DNA from: Salinispira sp.
GTDB taxonomy: Bacteria > Spirochaetota > Spirochaetia > DSM-27196 > Salinispiraceae
Assembly: GCA_965602015.1 (NCBI GenBank)
Contig: OZ271918.1
Coordinates: 288,001 to 352,000, forward strand
Direction of reading: 5' to 3'
DNA: 64,000 nt
Shown: positions 1,598-54,313 of the stretch, piece by piece
How the letters are laid out: each line of letters starts with the position of its first letter
How positions within the stretch are numbered: the stretch's first letter is position 1
The notes under the pieces: model-generated
Database searches by the model: none
The model's input: the letters and a program-made list of their open reading frames with translations, nothing else
What the model was told of the DNA's origin: nothing
Program-made: the position numbers and the translations under genes

Positions 1598-1800
1598 CAA
1601 GCCTCCGGAAACCCCCTGCGGCACAAAACCAACCTGCGATTCAATTTCAACAAGCTTTGGGGTACTGTATAAGTGTAACACCCGAGGATGGCGGCCGCCA
1701 AAGAAAAAGCCCGGCGGGCCGGCCTTTTGAAGACCGGAGCGCTGGTGTATACTGCCAGTCTCGAGCCCGTCGTCGGGCTGATGGCAGAGGAGGACAGCTC

Positions 1801-8119: not shown

Positions 8120-8264
8120 GTGCCCCCAAAACAGCTGATTTGTGCGGTGTAACTCTTTGTGTGAAAATAAAAAAGTGGAGTTTTATCAAGGGCTTCAATG
8201 GATGACAGATAAATTACATCATGAAAAGGGATTACGCTGTTTAAATCAGCTGTTTTGGGGGCAC
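8120..8264. repeat. Inverted-repeat doublet 1 (MITE/REPIN-like, 145 bp)
   Basis: GTGCCCCCAAAACAGCTGAT at 8120-8139 and its reverse complement at 8245-8264; 105-bp AT-rich interior; TA on both flanks. Confidence 0.92.
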
Positions 8265-13452: not shown

Positions 13453-13598
13453 GTGCCCCCAAAACAGCTGATTTAAACTCCCTAATTATTGCTCTTGCAA
13501 AAATGTACAAGCGAACCAACATATGAACGTTCGGCTCATTACATTATTTCTTTACATGATAGTATTTGCACCATCCCCATCAGCTGTTTTGGGGGCAC
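13453..13598. repeat. Inverted-repeat doublet 2 (MITE/REPIN-like, 146 bp)
   Basis: Same 20-bp ends at 13453-13472 and 13579-13598; 106-bp interior; TA on both flanks. Confidence 0.92.
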
Positions 13599-19912: not shown

Positions 19913-20745
19913 ATAACCGCCTGTTTCAAACATTAACGATTGCTTTTTTTCTGGCAGTTGTGCTATCTGCCAGCCTCTGGGCCGGCGGCGAAGCCGAACT
20001 GTGGGACCGCTGGATTCTTTCAGATGAGTCCAGCGAAGAAGTGCTTGATCACGGCCCTTGGGGAGATTTCCTCAGCAAGTATCGCTATGTCGGTGAAAAT
20101 GGGGTGGCGCTCATTCGATATGATGAAGTAAGCGCAGATGATCTCAGAAGCCTCGATACCTATGTAGATTATTTACAAGCTGTGGAGGTTGATACCCTCA
20201 ATTCCCGTGAACAATACGCATTTTGGGTGAATCTCTACAACGCGGCGACTATACAGTTGATACTCAGGGAATACCCCGTAACAAGCATCCGCCGAATCTC
20301 CGGGGCCCGAATTACCAGTCCTGGTCCATGGGATCTAAAGCTGCTGCAGGTTGCCGGGGAAGAACTCAGCCTCGACGATATCGAACACCGGATCCTGCGT
20401 CCCCGCTGGAAGGATCCACGAGTGCATTTCGTCGTAAACTGCGCAAGCATCGGATGTCCTGATGTCCCTCCCGTCCCCCTGACCGCTGAAAATCAAGACC
20501 GTTTGATGGAAGAAGGTGCTCGGATATACCTCAACCATCCGCGAGGTATCAAGGCTGACGGCAGGCGGCTTGTCATTAGCTCGATCTTCGATTGGTTTTC
20601 TGTAGATTTTGGTGAGAACGAGGCTGATATTCTGGATTTCATCGATGAATACCGCGATGTCGATCAGCTATTATCCGGTATTGGGAGAAGTCGGGAGAAT
20701 GTTGCTATCCGTTATGATTACGACTGGTCATTGAATTATGAATGA
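19909..20745 (+). CDS. DUF547 domain secreted protein
   Basis: Signal peptide; AFWVNLYNA.T, SLDDIEHRILR, DPRVHFVVNCASIGCP, YDWSLN. Confidence 0.9.
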   Translation: MNNRLFQTLTIAFFLAVVLSASLWAGGEAELWDRWILSDESSEEVLDHGPWGDFLSKYRYVGENGVALIRYDEVSADDLRSLDTYVDYLQAVEVDTLNSREQYAFWVNLYNAATIQLILREYPVTSIRRISGARITSPGPWDLKLLQVAGEELSLDDIEHRILRPRWKDPRVHFVVNCASIGCPDVPPVPLTAENQDRLMEEGARIYLNHPRGIKADGRRLVISSIFDWFSVDFGENEADILDFIDEYRDVDQLLSGIGRSRENVAIRYDYDWSLNYE

Positions 20746-20746
20746 A

Positions 20747-21996
20747 GTGTCCCCAAAACAGCTGATCGAATCAACATAACTCTTTTGCCAGTAGTCTTCT
20801 ATGACACGATTACCAGTTCATAGGAGATTAGCATGGCATTAATCCCTCGTTTCTGTCCGTACTCGGACTGTTCTCAGCATCATCGCGACAGAGAATCAAG
20901 CCGGTGCTGGTTTGTCCGAAACGGCCACTATCACTGCCGCCGCCTCGGTTCTTCCCAGCGCTATCGCTGCAAGCATTGCCGTCGATACTTCTGCGAAAGC
21001 GCGTTCCACCTCGATTATCGCGCACATCATCGCCTCGATTACCGGCGCATCTTCTCTTCAATCAACTCGGCCTCCGGCATTCGCGATATTGCCCGGGAGT
21101 TTTATGTCACCGACAAGGTCATTCTCAATCGGCTGAGCCGATTGTCCCGTCAGGCAATCGCTGCCATGGCCCAGTTATCGAATGATCATACAATCGATGA
21201 GGATATTGCCGTTGATGGGTTTGAAAGCTTTGTGTACAGCCAATACTGGCCAAACAATTTCACTCTCGCGGTAGGTTCCGACAGCCAGGTTGTCTATGCG
21301 TGCGACTATGCACAGATGCGGCGCAAAGGGCGGATGACCCCCGCACAAAAGCGCCGGCGCGATGAGCTCAATCGCCGGTATCCTATTGCAGGGGGACAAA
21401 TTGCGCGATCTTTCCGGGATGTGATAAACACCATTCTTCCCCGGTGGAAGGCTTATTCATCTAAGAAGCCATGCTATCTCTTGAGCGATGAAAAACTCGA
21501 ATACCGCCGTGAGCTCTGCGCTCACCGGGACTGGGCGGCGTTGGAAAATGCAGGGCGGGTTATCCATCACCGAACCTCATCGAGGGTGGTCAGGACCACT
21601 GAAAACCCGCTGTTTCCTGTGAATTACCTGGATCGGGAGATACGAAAGGATCAATCCTGTCATGTCCGCCAGAGTGTCCAATGGTCAAAATCGGTGAACA
21701 ACAGCATGGAGCGGATGATGATCTACATCGCCTATCATAACCTGCTCAAGCCGTATCGGATAAACGGACGTAACGATATCAGCCATGGTGAGGTTGCCGG
21801 GTTTGACCGAAGGCGGGTACTCACGTTGGCAAAAAGGATGTTTACACAGCGGGCCTTCGTTCATCATCTGGTGTTGGACATCAGCCAATGGAAGACCTGG
21901 CACCGGATCTGGAAGACACCGGTGAGTGCGCTGAAGATCGATCTACCCGATTATGCGGTGGCCTGAGGAGCGGGAAATCAGCTGTTTTGGGGGCAC
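20747..21996 (+). mobile_element. IS-like element (1250 bp) bounded by the 20-bp repeat as terminal inverted repeats
   Basis: Left GTGTCCCCAAAACAGCTGAT 20747-20766 (1 mismatch) and right ATCAGCTGTTTTGGGGGCAC 21977-21996 enclose one transposase-like ORF. No direct target duplication is seen; the flanks are inverted (AATGAA/TTCATT). Confidence 0.8.
20833..21966 (+). CDS. IS1-like transposase: Zn ribbon + HTH + RNase H/DDE-type domain
   Basis: CPYSDC...RNG...QRYRCKHCRRYF (InsA-like Zn ribbon), GIRDIAREFYV (HTH), IAVDGFESF, LLSDEK..Y, PVNYLDREIR, YHNLLKP. AGGAG RBS at 20822. Confidence 0.75.
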   Translation: MALIPRFCPYSDCSQHHRDRESSRCWFVRNGHYHCRRLGSSQRYRCKHCRRYFCESAFHLDYRAHHRLDYRRIFSSINSASGIRDIAREFYVTDKVILNRLSRLSRQAIAAMAQLSNDHTIDEDIAVDGFESFVYSQYWPNNFTLAVGSDSQVVYACDYAQMRRKGRMTPAQKRRRDELNRRYPIAGGQIARSFRDVINTILPRWKAYSSKKPCYLLSDEKLEYRRELCAHRDWAALENAGRVIHHRTSSRVVRTTENPLFPVNYLDREIRKDQSCHVRQSVQWSKSVNNSMERMMIYIAYHNLLKPYRINGRNDISHGEVAGFDRRRVLTLAKRMFTQRAFVHHLVLDISQWKTWHRIWKTPVSALKIDLPDYAVA

Positions 21997-22035
21997 TTCA
22001 TTGATATTCCCCGTGGAGCAATCTATTCTTAGGCT

Positions 22036-34096: not shown

Positions 34097-34116
34097 GTGC
34101 CCCCAAAACAGCTGAT
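34097..34116 (+). repeat. Solo copy of the 20-bp repeat
   Basis: Exact GTGCCCCCAAAACAGCTGAT followed by TTAAA; no partner ~145 bp away. Confidence 0.9.
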
Positions 34117-36326: not shown

Positions 36327-36471
36327 GTGCCCCCAAAACAGCTGATTTTCAGGCTGTAAAATGCTCTATGATAAGCAGAAACGGGCATTTTTCTCGAGCG
36401 CGCGATTGACGGCGCTTAATTCCAATCCTGTGAACAGATTACATGATTTAAATCAGCTGTTTTGGGGGCAC
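36327..36471. repeat. Inverted-repeat doublet 3 (MITE/REPIN-like, 145 bp)
   Basis: Same 20-bp ends at 36327-36346 and 36452-36471; 105-bp interior. Confidence 0.92.
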
Positions 36472-40413: not shown

Positions 40414-41577
40414 GTGAAAAGCAGTCAAAGCATAAGCATCGCCCACGCCCGCCGCATCATCCTTGAAGACTATCGCCGCCGCCGCAGCGCAGAGATGGAC
40501 CGAGGGCCCGATTCGGCCCAGCGGGCTCTCGAAGAGTCGGGGTACATTCAGATCGACACGATATCGCGGATAATCCGTGCCCATCACCACAGCTTTTACA
40601 ACAGAAGTGAGCATTACCAGCCGACGGATCTCGATGAGGCCCAGCGACGGGGCGGAGTATTTGAATACTGGTCACATGCGGCGGCTTACCTGCCCATGAG
40701 CAGTTACCGCTACTGTCTTCCTCGAATGGAGCGGATGCGCAGGGGCGGCGGGTACGGTCCAAACGCCGATGCCGCTCTGGCAGATGAAGTCCTGAGACGG
40801 ATCCGCACCGAGGGGCCCCTGATGAGCAAGGATTTCGCCCATTCCACACGGCCCGGTGGCGGCTGGTGGGACTGGAAGCCCGCCAAAATCGCGTTGGAAC
40901 ATCTGTTTCACCGTGGTCAGCTGGTAATCGCCGGCCGGAAGAATTTCCAAAAACAGTACGCCCTGCCGGAGCAGGTATTACCCGCAGACCTGGATACTTC
41001 CCCGCCGAGCCGGGAGGAAATGGCGGATTATCTCATCGATCTGACACTGCGCAATCAGCTTTTCAGCCGGGGGAAGTATCTGCGCTCCCAGCACAGGGAC
41101 GGGGCTGAGGGAATCCCCCAGGCGGTGAACCGTCAGCTTGAGGAGGGACTGCTCGTTGCCGTCGACATAGAAGACCGGGGCCTGTGGTACTGCCGTCCCC
41201 AAACCCTGGAGCAGAGTGCTCACCCAGACCACATGTGGGCCCGAATTGTTTCGCCCTTTGACGGTTTGGTAATCCAGAGGGCCTGGATTGCGGAACTTTT
41301 TGATTTTACCTACCAAATCGAGTGCTATGTCCCCGCGGCCAAGCGGCGCTACGGATATTTCACCCTGCCCATTATTGGACCACGGGGTTTTGCGGGTCTC
41401 CTGGATGCCAAGGCCGAACGCAAGAACCGGGTTTTTAATGTCATCTCCCTATACCTCAAGGCCTCTAAGCAAAATGACCCGGAGTTCCGAATTGCTCTTG
41501 ATAAGGAGATCGAGCGGTTTGCTGCCTTTAACGGTTGCGAGACAGTAGAGTGTGAATCGGTCCTGCCCTACGAATGA
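40414..41577 (+). CDS. Winged-helix YcaQ/AlkZ (HTH_42) DNA glycosylase family protein
   Basis: QIDTI, FEYWSHAA, GWWDWKPAK, SPFDGL, IECYVPAAKRRYGYF. Confidence 0.9.
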   Translation: MKSSQSISIAHARRIILEDYRRRRSAEMDRGPDSAQRALEESGYIQIDTISRIIRAHHHSFYNRSEHYQPTDLDEAQRRGGVFEYWSHAAAYLPMSSYRYCLPRMERMRRGGGYGPNADAALADEVLRRIRTEGPLMSKDFAHSTRPGGGWWDWKPAKIALEHLFHRGQLVIAGRKNFQKQYALPEQVLPADLDTSPPSREEMADYLIDLTLRNQLFSRGKYLRSQHRDGAEGIPQAVNRQLEEGLLVAVDIEDRGLWYCRPQTLEQSAHPDHMWARIVSPFDGLVIQRAWIAELFDFTYQIECYVPAAKRRYGYFTLPIIGPRGFAGLLDAKAERKNRVFNVISLYLKASKQNDPEFRIALDKEIERFAAFNGCETVECESVLPYE

Positions 41578-43310
41578 GCATGATCCCGGTTTTCCTCGTA
41601 GAGCCGATTAAAATCATCCTGCAAATCGAGGAAGCACCGGTATATCTCCGTTCCGAAATGCTCCTCCCCGCTGAGGCCGCTGCGGTCGTCGTGGCGCAAA
41701 ATGGCGAGGCTCTTTTTATGGCTGAACTCGTCCTTGTATTGCCGGGAAGCCCTCAGGGCGTCGTATTTATCGGCTATAGCCACAATCATGGCTTCTTTCG
41801 GGATTTCATTGCCCCGCAGCGGTCTGTTTTCCATATAGGCTGGATCGCGGGGATCGCCGATGAGCCGAACACTGCCGTCCGGCGCCATGATTCTGGGGTA
41901 GCCGGTTCCCGCCCAGGTCTGGTGGTGATTGAGGGCAATCTGGTAGGCCATTTTTAAGCGGGGGTCCGGATCCTCTTCATATGCCATCATTTGATCGAGA
42001 ATTCTGGCGCCGTAGACCGGGTGCATCTCCATCTGAAGCCGCTCTTTATCGGTGAGCTTCCTGGGGAGCTTGATAATATGGGGAATCGCCACCTTACCGA
42101 TATCGTGAATGGCCGCCACCTGTCCAATGCTCCGAATGGCCCGTTGATCCATGCCCAGGTTTTTCGCCATAAGCTCGGAGTATAGGTTCACCCTGAAGAT
42201 ATGCCTGCCGGTAATTTCATCGGAAAACTCACTGGCGGCGCAGAGTCCCATGATGCTCTGGACGAATTTTCTGTCATTTTTTATAACCAGCTGCGTGAGG
42301 GAGTTCGTCGCCCGTGCGGTGTTTACTGCTGTCTTGATAAAAACCCGGTCGTAATCCTCGATTGCCGGCAGGCGGTTGAACGCGATGAGGGATATGGGCC
42401 CCTCGTGGTAGCTAATAAAATTATGAACCGGCTCTCCAAGGAAGTCTCGAACCGAGGGAGTAAAAGAGAAATTTTCGCAAAACTGCTCCTGGCTGGAGAA
42501 TTCTTCCTGGGAGGAGGTGAACATAGCAAAGGTCTTTCTTGATAGCAGCAAGGGGTCTGCGGATTCTCCGGCCACCTGTATGGCTTTCGAATGAAGGGCA
42601 TCGTTTTCTCCGGGGCCGTATATTCTCCCGGAATGCATTCCGTCACCGTTTTCCAGGGTGATGACCACCGCCTTAAAATCGTCACCCAAAATAAGCCGGG
42701 CCAACCTGGCGAAACTGTCTCCCTCAGCCGCAAGCTCCTCCACCGAGCTGAGTATCTCGCTACTGAAACTTCGAAGACTCTGAAGGCTGGCATCGAGATG
42801 TTTCCGGGTGCTGATATCGTCGAACCAGACCAGGTATTCTCCCCGGGCCGCAGGTTTGCTTACCGTCACCGCATACCATCTATCGAGCACCGGCGAATGA
42901 CATTCATGTACGTAGCGCTCGCTCGCCTCCTGGGCATTGAGCATCAGTTCGGCAAAGTGATCCTTACAGGCCAGGTCAGTCATCCTCTTCACGCCGTGTT
43001 CTTCGAAAAGGCGGGCGGTGTTGCCCGTAGCGGCCAGAATCCGGCCCTCATCGTCCATAACGAATGCCGGGTCCCTTCGCTCCCGCGGAAGCTGGACCAG
43101 CAGATCCCGCTGGCGGTTTCGAAACTTTACGGCGGATTTGGAAAAGGCCTGGACCAGGACCGGAACCAAAAAGGGTGCGGCGGAGGAAAAGGCGGATCCT
43201 GATTGGAGTACGTTAAGGGAGATGCCCACCGCCCCAGCCAACAGGTAATTGAGGGGATCGGCGAACTCTTTGAGGACGAAGCGGCAGTAGATAAGGAATC
43301 GTGATTTCAT
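41568..43310 (-). CDS. HD-GYP domain phosphodiesterase with N-terminal membrane/PAS-like region
   Basis: TGRHIFRV, HDIGK, HPVYGA, HHQTWAGTGYP, ADKYDALR..RQYK. Confidence 0.88.
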   Translation of the reverse strand: MKSRFLIYCRFVLKEFADPLNYLLAGAVGISLNVLQSGSAFSSAAPFLVPVLVQAFSKSAVKFRNRQRDLLVQLPRERRDPAFVMDDEGRILAATGNTARLFEEHGVKRMTDLACKDHFAELMLNAQEASERYVHECHSPVLDRWYAVTVSKPAARGEYLVWFDDISTRKHLDASLQSLRSFSSEILSSVEELAAEGDSFARLARLILGDDFKAVVITLENGDGMHSGRIYGPGENDALHSKAIQVAGESADPLLLSRKTFAMFTSSQEEFSSQEQFCENFSFTPSVRDFLGEPVHNFISYHEGPISLIAFNRLPAIEDYDRVFIKTAVNTARATNSLTQLVIKNDRKFVQSIMGLCAASEFSDEITGRHIFRVNLYSELMAKNLGMDQRAIRSIGQVAAIHDIGKVAIPHIIKLPRKLTDKERLQMEMHPVYGARILDQMMAYEEDPDPRLKMAYQIALNHHQTWAGTGYPRIMAPDGSVRLIGDPRDPAYMENRPLRGNEIPKEAMIVAIADKYDALRASRQYKDEFSHKKSLAILRHDDRSGLSGEEHFGTEIYRCFLDLQDDFNRLYEENRDHAHS

Positions 43311-43394
43311 CTACCTGCTACTATGACCTCAGCCAGTCATTCCGTCAAATTCGGGATGTAGTTTTCGGGGCATATCTGAAAGCGGTGCCTCCCC

Positions 43395-43547
43395 GCAAGA
43401 GTTTTCAATGTTCTATTACAAAAATTCTGCAAATCGGTTTTGTCCGAGTCATATCTCCGCCATCCACGTGGCATGAAAATGTCTTTCCAGGGGTGTCGCA
43501 ATCACTTTGCACAGCCTCGTATTCGCGCTGTAGCCCCAAAAACGCGC
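43395..43547 (-). ncRNA. Putative bridge/seek RNA of the IS110/IS1111 element
   Basis: Non-coding region between the transposase stop and the right IR. It holds target-matching segments (43533-43543, 43503-43507) and donor-junction-matching segments (43469-43478, 43449-43456), with an ACAGC/GCUGU stem between the target segments. Boundaries are approximate. Confidence 0.72.
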
Positions 43548-44600
43548 TTACCCCTGTCTGGACAAACCCGCTAATGCAGGATCTTTGTAATGCTGTTCTT
43601 TCTGCAATATCCAAAATATTGCTTCTGCTAAGTGCCGTGCCACAGAGATTATAGCAACCTTATGATTTCGTTTAGTACGAACTCTCTTGTAGAGTTTTAC
43701 CGTATGTCGGTTCGCCCAATTTCTTTGATTAAGACAGGTTACATTAGCTGCTTCAGTAAGTGCCCACTTCAAGTATCGATTACATGCTTTCGATGTTCGA
43801 CCATAATGAGTTTTACCTCCGCTCGAGTGAACGCGCGGCGTTGTACCACAGTATGATGCAAAATGTTCAGCGGTCTTAAAGCGATGTATGTCTCCAATTT
43901 CATGCACAATGACTGCGCTGAGAATAAATCCGATCCCGGGAATGGATTTCACCAACTTCATTTCAGCATTTTCATCAAACGCTTCATGCATTCGTTGTTC
44001 GCAGTCGGTGATAGATTGCTTAATAAACGCGAGATTATCGAGCTTGAGTTTCATCATGGTGCGGGTATGCTCGGGGAGTTTTGGCATTACCTTCTTCATG
44101 GCTTCTGTACCTGCTTTTCCGAACAGATCGCTCACATCATTGAATCGAAACCCATATTTCTCGAACCCGGCATGAATTTGGTTCTTTTCACGTATCAACT
44201 CCTGAACGAACTGCATCCGGGTTCGATAGAGTTCTCGTTTATCACGTAATTCTCCTGGTGGAATCCACACAGTAGGCAGTGTGCCTGTTTTTTGAAGTTT
44301 ATTGAGACCTTCAGCATCGAGTTTGTCAGTTTTGTTAAACATGGCCATCATCAATTTTGACTTACCGGCATGAACCAGCAAGGGGTTCATGCCGGCCTCC
44401 TCAATCTCATCCACGATCCAGTACCAACTTCCGATCGTTTCAAGTGCGACTTCCTGTCCCGGCTCAAATTGTTGGAGGAAATCACGAATACACCCGTGAG
44501 AATGTTCTATGCGCTGTGAGGATTTCCTTCCTTTTTCGTCCTCAATTGCAGCCACGGTATACCGTTTATGGCTGTCGAGGGATATAATAATACTACTCAT
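43548..44600 (-). CDS. IS110-family DEDD recombinase/transposase
   Basis: ISLDSHK, VALETIG, KTDKLDA (DEDD RuvC-like); SIPGIG....A.I..EIGDI.RF....FASYCG.TP..HSSGGK (Tnp20 domain); GGAGGAGG RBS. Confidence 0.95.
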   Translation of the reverse strand: MSSIIISLDSHKRYTVAAIEDEKGRKSSQRIEHSHGCIRDFLQQFEPGQEVALETIGSWYWIVDEIEEAGMNPLLVHAGKSKLMMAMFNKTDKLDAEGLNKLQKTGTLPTVWIPPGELRDKRELYRTRMQFVQELIREKNQIHAGFEKYGFRFNDVSDLFGKAGTEAMKKVMPKLPEHTRTMMKLKLDNLAFIKQSITDCEQRMHEAFDENAEMKLVKSIPGIGFILSAVIVHEIGDIHRFKTAEHFASYCGTTPRVHSSGGKTHYGRTSKACNRYLKWALTEAANVTCLNQRNWANRHTVKLYKRVRTKRNHKVAIISVARHLAEAIFWILQKEQHYKDPALAGLSRQG

Positions 44601-44707
44601 TTGGTTGTCCTCCTCCGGTATTTAATATAGACCCTGACTGGCAGGATCTCGGGGGAGGCACCGCTTTCATACCATCACTATCTAATTTTATATTCGCACG
44701 GGCTTTA

Positions 44708-45781
44708 CTACTCGATATTCTGCCGGCTTACCACCGGTTGGGCGTAGAGTTCGAGGATTTTTTCCCGGATTTCCGGTCTCAGGTCGTGAAGTTTTTGGGC
44801 TATCCAGGCACCGCCGGAGCTCATTTTCTGCCCCAGCTCATCAAGGCGGTTGCTGAATCCGTCTCCCACCATACCCAGCAGACTCGCCGCATGAATATTT
44901 GATTCCCAAAGCCGGACGCCCTGTATGATTCTCCTGTCCAGGAGTTTCACCAGCTCGCTGCGCTTTGACGCCCGGACCGCCGGAGATAGATGAATGTGAA
45001 TCCGGCGCTTTTTCTGCGTCAATTCCTGGACAACCTGGCTGCTGTCCCGGCGCTCGTCGCTCTTGTCGAGCTTACCCAATCGGTCTTCCACAAGCAGGGT
45101 ATCGAGGGGAATTTCTTCGTAGCTGATGGAAACCGGAATGACATCGACCTCATTGGTAAACTCTTCCCAGCTTTTGTCGCGATGAGCCATTTTTATCATG
45201 GCGGGCACCGCGGAGTCGGTGACATCCCGGCCGTCTTTTGCACGGCCGTTGCGTTGGGCTATCCACACTGACTTTCCCTTGTCGGTGAGGGAACGGATAT
45301 AGCCCGAGAGTTTTTCCGCGGCTTCCAGCTTCTCCTCAATGTCGGGAACCTCCCGCCTGACGATAAACCCCCGGTTGAGGCGGATGAGGTGTCCCAGCCA
45401 GGGGGTCTTCAGGAGATTGTCCCCGGCGGCGTTATATGCGGTTTCGCCGCTGTGACGGTATAGCATGTGGTTGAACAAAATCGGATCCAGCGATGTGCTG
45501 CGGTGTGTCGATATATAAATCGCCGGTCTGTTACGGGGAATGTTTTCCAGCCCTGAATAGCTGATACCCTCGGTGCTGTGATCAATAATAAAATCCACGA
45601 GACGGGCCATAGTGCGCCGAAACTGTTTCCAGCTCAGGATGAACATAAGCTTTGCCTGTATGCGTCCGATGCGCCCGCCGGCCCGGTCAAGAAGGGACTG
45701 AAAATGGGGGTCTTTGCGTATCATCCTCCAATAACGGCGGAAGGTTCTTCTGGGATATGCCTGTATATCGTCAAACTTCAT
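44708..45781 (-). CDS. Glycerol-3-phosphate / phospholipid acyltransferase family protein
   Basis: STHRSTSLD, AGDNL, GFIVRR, WIAQRNGRAKDG, PVSISYE. Confidence 0.85.
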   Translation of the reverse strand: MKFDDIQAYPRRTFRRYWRMIRKDPHFQSLLDRAGGRIGRIQAKLMFILSWKQFRRTMARLVDFIIDHSTEGISYSGLENIPRNRPAIYISTHRSTSLDPILFNHMLYRHSGETAYNAAGDNLLKTPWLGHLIRLNRGFIVRREVPDIEEKLEAAEKLSGYIRSLTDKGKSVWIAQRNGRAKDGRDVTDSAVPAMIKMAHRDKSWEEFTNEVDVIPVSISYEEIPLDTLLVEDRLGKLDKSDERRDSSQVVQELTQKKRRIHIHLSPAVRASKRSELVKLLDRRIIQGVRLWESNIHAASLLGMVGDGFSNRLDELGQKMSSGGAWIAQKLHDLRPEIREKILELYAQPVVSRQNIE

Positions 45782-54293: not shown

Positions 54294-54313
54294 CTGCCCC
54301 GAAAACAGCTGAT
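54294..54313 (+). repeat. Degenerate solo copy of the 20-bp repeat
   Basis: CTGCCCCGAAAACAGCTGAT, 18/20 match to the consensus. Confidence 0.82.

Follow-up and report, generated by a model that had tools for sequence, protein, structure and literature searches.

The window, which is the whole 64,000-nucleotide stretch of DNA analysed here, carries an IS110-family element inserted between an acyltransferase gene and an HD-GYP-type gene, with the following features at the locus.

41568..43310, minus strand: HD-GYP-type gene, downstream of the insertion (PF13487, PF01966)
43320..43348, minus strand: putative sigma70-like hexamer pair with a 17-nt spacer, ahead of the HD-GYP gene and intact despite the insertion
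43361..43372, minus strand: right half of the target, made up of the core and the 10 outermost nt of the TIR consensus; the inner half is lacking
43373..44677, minus strand: IS110-family element with IS1111-type ends, 1305 bp including one TG core copy
43377..43394, minus strand: right sub-terminal inverted repeat, with a 3-nt extension on a 19-bp reading
43548..44600, minus strand: DEDD recombinase/transposase, 350 aa (D9, E54, D92, D95, S260; PF01548 and PF02371)
44652..44669, minus strand: left sub-terminal inverted repeat, 18 bp and perfect; a 19-bp reading (one mismatch) gives a 7-nt extension
44678..44682, minus strand: left half of the target, ending AG; this 5-mer is the outer end of 1 of 124 TIR ends
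44708..45781, minus strand: acyltransferase gene, upstream of the insertion (PF01553)

The element lies 24 bp upstream of the hexamer pair, and both hexamers are found by eye, at equal spacing, ahead of the HD-GYP gene of a sister genome (G001); thus, neither gene nor likely promoter appears to be broken, and it is possible that the insertion affects read-through from the acyltransferase gene. In G001, the acyltransferase and HD-GYP genes are adjacent, with neither an IS nor an intact TIR between them.

The letters at 43361–43372 are GTTTTCGGGGCA and those at 44676–44680 are CACTA, with the dinucleotide CA duplicated at 43371–43372 and 44676–44677 on either side of the element. An earlier, sequence-only reading of this DNA had proposed that excision at the CA core would rejoin a 15-mer from the end of a resident repeat; removal of 43373–44677 does restore that 15-mer, which is identical to the repeat end at 14 of 15 positions. 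The inner CAGCTGAT half is absent from the site, as had been stated, and the variant base does recur in a solo copy at 54295; this variant is common, the variable position being G in 53 of the 124 repeat ends. Contigs from four sequencing runs of one sample, a form of data from which rare forms drop out, contain neither the empty allele of the strain, for which the earlier reading had suggested a search, nor a circle joint of the element.

The transposase scores 222 bits against NF033542 (cut-off 140), and in a set of 24 sequences, D9, E54, D92, and D95 are invariant and S260 nearly so. As in the IS110 superfamily, the DEDD domain is accompanied by PF02371 with its conserved serine, and insertion is site- and orientation-specific at a short core (nine of nine independent copies; see below). 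As in IS1111, the longer non-coding DNA, of 175 bp, lies downstream of the transposase gene (77 bp lie upstream), and extensions of 7 nt (left) and 3 nt (right) are obtained if the inverted repeat is taken as 19 bp with its outermost pair mismatched. The 18-bp repeat is longer than the 11–13 bp or 7–17 bp given as usual in PMC11187229 and PMC11208160, respectively. The C-terminal motif, G252-T-T-P255....S260-G261, takes the general G--P----SG form without the L of IS1111 GL-P----S(t)G. Because this L is missing and the transposase is distant from those of IS4321/IS5075 (22%–25% identity), the element is probably best regarded as an IS110-superfamily member working like IS1111, and it is not filed as a proven IS1111 member.

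Ten copies with common ends and 98.7%–100% identity are present in the genome of the strain (G000; 3.87 Mb, one contig). One of these is interrupted by a 1310-bp element, which we take to be IS3-like. This 1310-bp element occurs as seven identical copies (G000:1707043-1708352 and six more), of which one breaks the IS110 gene and another abuts a damaged TIR of the main family at 2613098; a second, distant IS110-family gene fragment lies ~600 bp from the interrupted copy, at G000:1709914-1710213. The copy at G000:3399668 falls within a tandem duplication, since the 255 bp separating it from the next copy equal the 255 bp upstream and both elements are identical. This duplication (G000:3399668-3402532) comprises the element and 255 bp of left flank, with the right tip joined to a chromosomal TG; one-sided tandem expansion is among the behaviours described for IS110 elements in 10.64898/2026.08.14.744561. 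As one of the ten copies stems from this event, nine insertions are counted as independent. Searches at E 1e-90 with alignment A1 retrieved members of the element in 7 of 99 genomes of the order, own genome included, and in 0 of 7 other genomes of the family. Its RNA region has no match in G001 or in G002, of the same genus, and two right-end-like hits in G006 were rejected as IS110 ends, being a duplicated coding stretch.

The target, first read as an abundant intergenic repeat, consists more precisely of the TIRs of an IS1-like element resident in the genome, and insertion extends to a second TIR subfamily. Both families are represented elsewhere in the window.

1649..1664, minus strand: TIR of the second family
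8121..8263, no strand assigned: MITE with main TIRs, unoccupied
13454..13597, no strand assigned: MITE with main TIRs, unoccupied
20743..22000, plus strand: autonomous IS1-like element (ORF 20833-21966, 377 aa), whose TIR is the target family
34098..34116, plus strand: solo TIR, unoccupied
36328..36470, no strand assigned: MITE with main TIRs, unoccupied
54295..54313, plus strand: the solo TIR cited in the earlier reading, with AC before the core, a class without insertion

The autonomous element exists in 12 full copies at 97%–100%, and relatives occur in 22 of 41 genomes searched, own genome included. Counted at up to one mismatch, the 124 TIR ends of the genome comprise 22 in autonomous elements (~1247 bp), 58 in MITEs (130–145 bp), 8 in short palindromes, and 36 solo. 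The 377-aa transposase has no Pfam hit and matches the IS1 model NF033558 at E 9e-9 with 35.5 bits, below the cut-off of 100; its nearest named Atlas cluster is the IS1/IS1595 Zn-domain cluster, with an Atlas value of 0.92 to a PF03400 cluster. IS1 ends follow a GGnnnTG rule, according to PMC6807381. At the resident ends TG is nearly invariant, the second position is G in 62 of 119, and the first is G in 42 and T in 46. Imperfect 9-bp duplications lie 5 nt outside TG in 10 of 44 pairs (at least 7/9 identity) against 0.86 in shuffles, at an offset picked from a scan; target duplications directly beside TG were rejected, none being found at offsets 0–3. Given the GGnnnTG rule and the duplications at the 5-nt offset, the true end of the element probably lies ~5 nt outside TG, which would place the IS110 insertion point inside the TIR.

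The outer 5 nt beyond TG vary even among autonomous copies whose protein is 97%–100% identical, and the inner 19 nt are nearly invariant; the duplications, imperfect and absent from most pairs, are found beyond the variable 5 nt, all of which is odd for an IS end. The inner TIR is almost perfect in the 36 solo copies, in the 8 ends of 38–43-bp palindromes, and in MITEs with unrelated interiors, a conservation that may come from recent activity, conversion, or host use. The second TIR family, of about 20 copies, bounds a transposase remnant in this genome (36% identical to the main transposase) and a full gene in G001; at G000:2757300-2760735, a pair of these TIRs surrounds an interrupted transposase. 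The main family is also present in G001, with 74 ends, of which 64 have G at the variable base; none was found in G002, where related elements carry other TIRs.

In the transposase sense, the left flank ends AG and the right flank starts TG in all ten copies, with CCCC directly after TG in nine; the exception is the tandem-duplication junction. The core and orientation of the target consensus predicted in the earlier reading are thereby borne out, but its A or T before AG is not fixed, the base being G in two of ten. The full repeat is found at seven of the ten copies. All nine independent insertions lie at AG^TGCCCCNAA in a single orientation, in agreement with the expectation that copies would not sit in unrelated sequences. 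Their hosts are seven full TIRs (of the IS1-like element and its MITEs), one second-subfamily TIR, which is one end of a ~110-bp pair, and, at the window site, one outer half only. CCCC-N-AA continues the right flank at all nine sites and AAC follows at eight; the variable TIR base is G at four, C at four, and T at one. After in-silico removal of the element, AGTGCCCCNAA occurs at 82 genomic sites, among 12,045 AGTG sites. These 82 consist of 72 main TIRs, 1 main TIR missing a base, 8 TIRs of the second family, and the window site. The naive probability of nine independent insertions all falling on them is 3e-20. Main TIR ends preceded by AG are occupied in 7 of 74 cases against 0 of the 50 others (Fisher p 0.04). 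A preference for G at the variable base was considered and dropped (3/19 G ends against 4/54 C ends; p 0.37). Both junctions of all ten copies fall outside ORFs of at least 150 aa, which make up 87.6% of the genome, and the idea of the repeat as a safe landing pad is thus upheld.

By host type, the occupied ends include 3 of the 22 counted in autonomous elements, 3 of the 58 in MITEs, and one solo TIR. The first two figures could be taken to mean that the element travels as a passenger on the resident transposon. This is extremely improbable, since the element sits outside the conserved inner TIR, the same composite was not seen at two loci, and two identical pairs at separate loci have different host elements and different flanks, which points to independent insertion. 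The proposal that the element parasitises another mobile system therefore stands in the sense that it uses landing sites made by another element; carriage by the IS1-like element is not supported.

The window site is the lone non-TIR carrier of the 11-mer and matches the TIR over 14 nt. The evidence on its origin is split, with a cut-down TIR remnant somewhat the more likely reading: the chance expectation for the window 14-mer (AGTGCCCCSAAAAC) is 0.02–0.04 sites per genome under a Markov model of the repeat-masked genome, the match reaches 17 nt against one TIR end, the intergenic stretch measures 92 bp here against 63 in G001, and a TIR at G000:283496 is cut at the same base. That TIR is solo and carries a tandem repeat of its outer 16 nt. 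Native intergenic sequence resembling the guide by chance could quite conceivably account for the site instead, as it has neither the inner half nor a partner TIR, and two further TGCCCCNAAAAC without the inner half match the number expected by chance (2.3–3.3). G001 also carries AGTCCCCGG at a similar place, which is paired with the window site under two of three alignment settings, the empty-site alignment with G001 being unstable across settings. Either as a remnant or as native sequence, the window site suggests that the inner TIR half is not required, unless it was lost after insertion.

The 3′ non-coding region of the element contains a predicted RNA, whose guide segments are named here after PMC11208160.

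43393..43398, minus strand: −35-like hexamer; with an 18-nt spacer, a −10-like TATGAT would arise only across the circle junction (read on paper)
43431..43558, minus strand: predicted bridge/seek RNA core, target-binding loop followed by donor-binding loop
43450..43456, minus strand: left donor guide, identical in sequence to the core together with the final 5 nt of the right end
43474..43482, minus strand: probable right donor guide, 5 of 9 Watson–Crick plus 2 G-U pairs to the left end; weakly defined
43503..43510, minus strand: left target guide, ending AAAG-TG, with AG-TG alone matched at all sites
43533..43543, minus strand: right target guide, complementary to the core G and 9 of the next 10 target bases; a U faces the variable TIR base

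A single-protein scan of genome contigs found nothing; an alignment-based scan retrieved homologues, giving a set of 164 loci (own element + 3 + 80 + 80). The RNA scaffold was parsed in 148 of these, with right flanks obtained in 125 and left flanks in 105; after removal of repeated guide pairs and of short or N-containing flanks, 95 right guides (own element included) and 78 left guides remained. Right guides match their flanks at positions +1 to +6 at frequencies of 0.99, 0.93, 0.84, 0.69, 0.63, and 0.48 (0.26–0.57 when shuffled), and left guides at −1 to −4 at 0.96, 0.85, 0.87, and 0.86 (0.26–0.39 when shuffled). In neither slot does any of 2000 shuffles reach the observed match, a figure that overstates independence given that the homologues are related, and the tracking of flank by guide also holds for the 41 guides outside the majority class. 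The claim that the element is programmed against the repeat family is thus favoured: its guide is complementary to the outer half, and the slot in which it lies varies in step with the target across homologues. All ten copies carry identical guide segments.

The right guide here scores 9 of 10 target bases, the top count among the 95 (binomial 3e-5 for a fixed slot), and the U opposite the variable base (+5) forms a Watson–Crick pair at 0 of 9 sites. Because pairing in the homologues fades to background by +7 (0.24 against 0.24), the apparent match at +8 to +10, where the second-subfamily site mismatches, is drawn from this element, and its use would be an extension of the clade's pattern. On the left, −3 and −4 are each matched at four of nine sites, no better than at unoccupied ends (p 0.44 and 0.20), against 0.86–0.87 in the clade. 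A weak left match with a long right match agrees with a target that is variable in its outer bases and constant in its inner ones.

On the donor side, the left donor guide covaries with the right end among homologues. The automatic test of the right donor guide was unreliable, as in many homologues its pattern settled on an incorrect register; an initial reading in a shifted register gave way to the homology register. Two-sided changes are seen in 18 of 27 predicted RNA pairs among 50 sequences, counts that describe the clade and not this element's own row, the inner hairpin of which was misplaced by MAFFT in alignment A2. The trimmed RNA of this element folds unconstrained into the same stems. 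No signal came from folding 43395-43550, a longer stretch, by itself (z 0.13), and support for the structure is therefore drawn from covariation; Rfam returned no matches to the RNA region at E 1.

The guide may, in principle, have been tuned on some other sequence, such as the second TIR subfamily or a repeat of a former host, with the main TIR matched just well enough. Its first seven positions match CCCCAAA, a sequence borne unchanged by part of the second-subfamily TIRs in both this genome and G001, whereas every main TIR is mismatched at +5; the failure to find the element in the seven other genomes of the family fits a recent arrival. We consider this origin rather unlikely, in that the main TIR is matched as far as +10, further than for any other of the 95 guides, and the second subfamily diverges at +8; such a history would in any case leave the mechanism as it is. 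Tuning to the main TIR is read from one genome, the homologues having yielded none that combines this guide with a TIR changing in step.

It is also conceivable that targeting needs more than the guide, with recruitment by the palindrome of the inner TIR, by a hairpin, or by bound transposase of the resident element. True TIRs host eight of the nine insertions, the window site may have shed its inner half once the element was in place, and a stem-loop in the target is reported as a second determinant for ISPpu10 in 10.64898/2026.03.19.712850. Since TIRs make up 81 of the 82 guide-compatible sites, no extra layer is needed to explain the first of these points; moreover, the inner half is lacking at the window site and differs in the second subfamily, and one occupied TIR is solo. 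A further determinant is thus very unlikely, and the two exceptional sites suggest that the outer 11–14 bp of the repeat are sufficient.

In the preferred reading, RNA programming against the TIR is well supported by the comparisons above, and an RNA encoded in the 3′ non-coding region of the element in all probability directs it to the TIR of the resident IS1-like element. The element would first form a circle, the junction of which would create a promoter for transcription of the RNA; this is predicted from the behaviour of the family in PMC11187229, and suitable hexamers come together in the reconstructed junction. The donor loop of the RNA would then read the joined ends, as the covariation of the left donor guide suggests; the right donor guide is weak. 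Complementarity and covariation point to pairing of the target loop with AG-TG on one strand and GCCCC-N-AAAAC on the other. Recombination at TG would then place the element ~5 nt inside the TIR with its right end facing inward, the position and orientation observed. If only the outer TIR half is read, the window site and second TIR subfamily qualify as well. The resident element, in turn, would keep seeding intergenic TIRs as landing sites for the IS110 element.

Insertion could also harm the resident element. By severing the IS1-like end from its outer 5 nt, it would immobilise that element, and an arms race might follow in which the target family drifts from the guide and guide pairing shifts rightward into the conserved part of the TIR. 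In this genome, best-pairing ends (AG before the core, G opposite the guide U) number 19 of 124, compared with 49 of 74 in G001, in which the IS110 element was not found; all 22 counted autonomous ends carry the mismatching C, and, as noted, none of the 50 ends without AG is hit. Such a conflict is nonetheless clearly unlikely, given that C-type ends are still hit at a rate not significantly different from that of G-type ends, the copies are not independent, and the G001 assembly is 83% complete. The outer 5 nt are so variable that the IS1-like element may tolerate an IS110 neighbour.

The transposase belongs to a clade at 45%–60% identity (6085 proteins at E ≤1e-40 among 8000 scored), in which pattern matching assigns 41 of 105 loci, counted without de-replication, to one common repeat-like target and 6 to a second. 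One end of a presumably IS3-like element, which has an integrase-core ORF (PF13683), harbours homologue L193, and L138 adjoins an ORF with a sub-threshold Pfam HTH, which we take to resemble an IS21 transposase. From these two sites, aiming at the ends of other elements seems to recur in the clade. Homologues L075, L085, L192, and L089 carry two different guides, apparently for two places in one shared repeated sequence. Shared targets of L096, L101, L215, and L220 and of L091, L213, L216, and L218 resemble tRNA pieces by eye; targeting of tRNA is not claimed, as ARAGORN found a tRNA in 0 of these 8 loci and in 0 of 105 rebuilt empty sites. With its short, easily parsed scaffold, many natural reprogrammings, and a TG core, the clade is a candidate from which programmable recombinases could be drawn that are distant from those of IS621 and IS4321. 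The present genome, being complete, shows guide, target family, and two informative exceptions together—a clean natural case—and brings to light an uncharacterised IS1-like family with MITEs. The resident element resembles the IS1 family in its GGnnnTG-like ends, in apparent 8–9-bp duplications at part of its copies, and in an N-terminal Cys cluster, but differs in its single 377-aa ORF below the NF033558 cut-off, its lack of a Pfam hit, and a poorly kept terminal GG.

Targeting of another element's TIRs is already known; what may be new here is the pair of element and target. The accessible papers that were searched list nothing about this element or about IS1-like TIRs as targets of the IS110 family, and an earlier record, for instance in ISfinder or a supplement, is possible. 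IS4321/IS5075, which target the TIRs of Tn21-family transposons (title of Partridge and Hall 2003), likewise combine sub-terminal inverted repeats with a target in the TIR of another transposon, whereas the transposase described here is 22%–25% identical to theirs over 69%–84% of the length and is directed at an IS1-like end and its MITEs. Closest in biology, judged by description, is IS1383 of Pseudomonas putida H, which, by the title of Muller et al. 2001, uses the inverted repeats of IS1384 as its specific integration sites; the host family and sequence are different. IS621, as described in PMC11208160, also has four guide segments around a 2-nt core, and its longer natural right guides raise specificity; however, its RNA lies at the left end with the opposite guide order, its target is REP, its right guide is 4–7 bp, and its transposase matches that of the present element in the C-terminal part only (E 4e-11). 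The seekRNA systems of ISEc11, ISKpn4, and ISPa11 in PMC11187229 share the downstream non-coding region, the 7- and 3-nt extensions, natural reprogramming, and the guide order reported there for IS1111, in which the top-strand match lies 5′ of the bottom-strand match. Those systems are bench-tested, whereas the one described here is read from sequence, with a transposase without the motif L and an RNA without an Rfam match.
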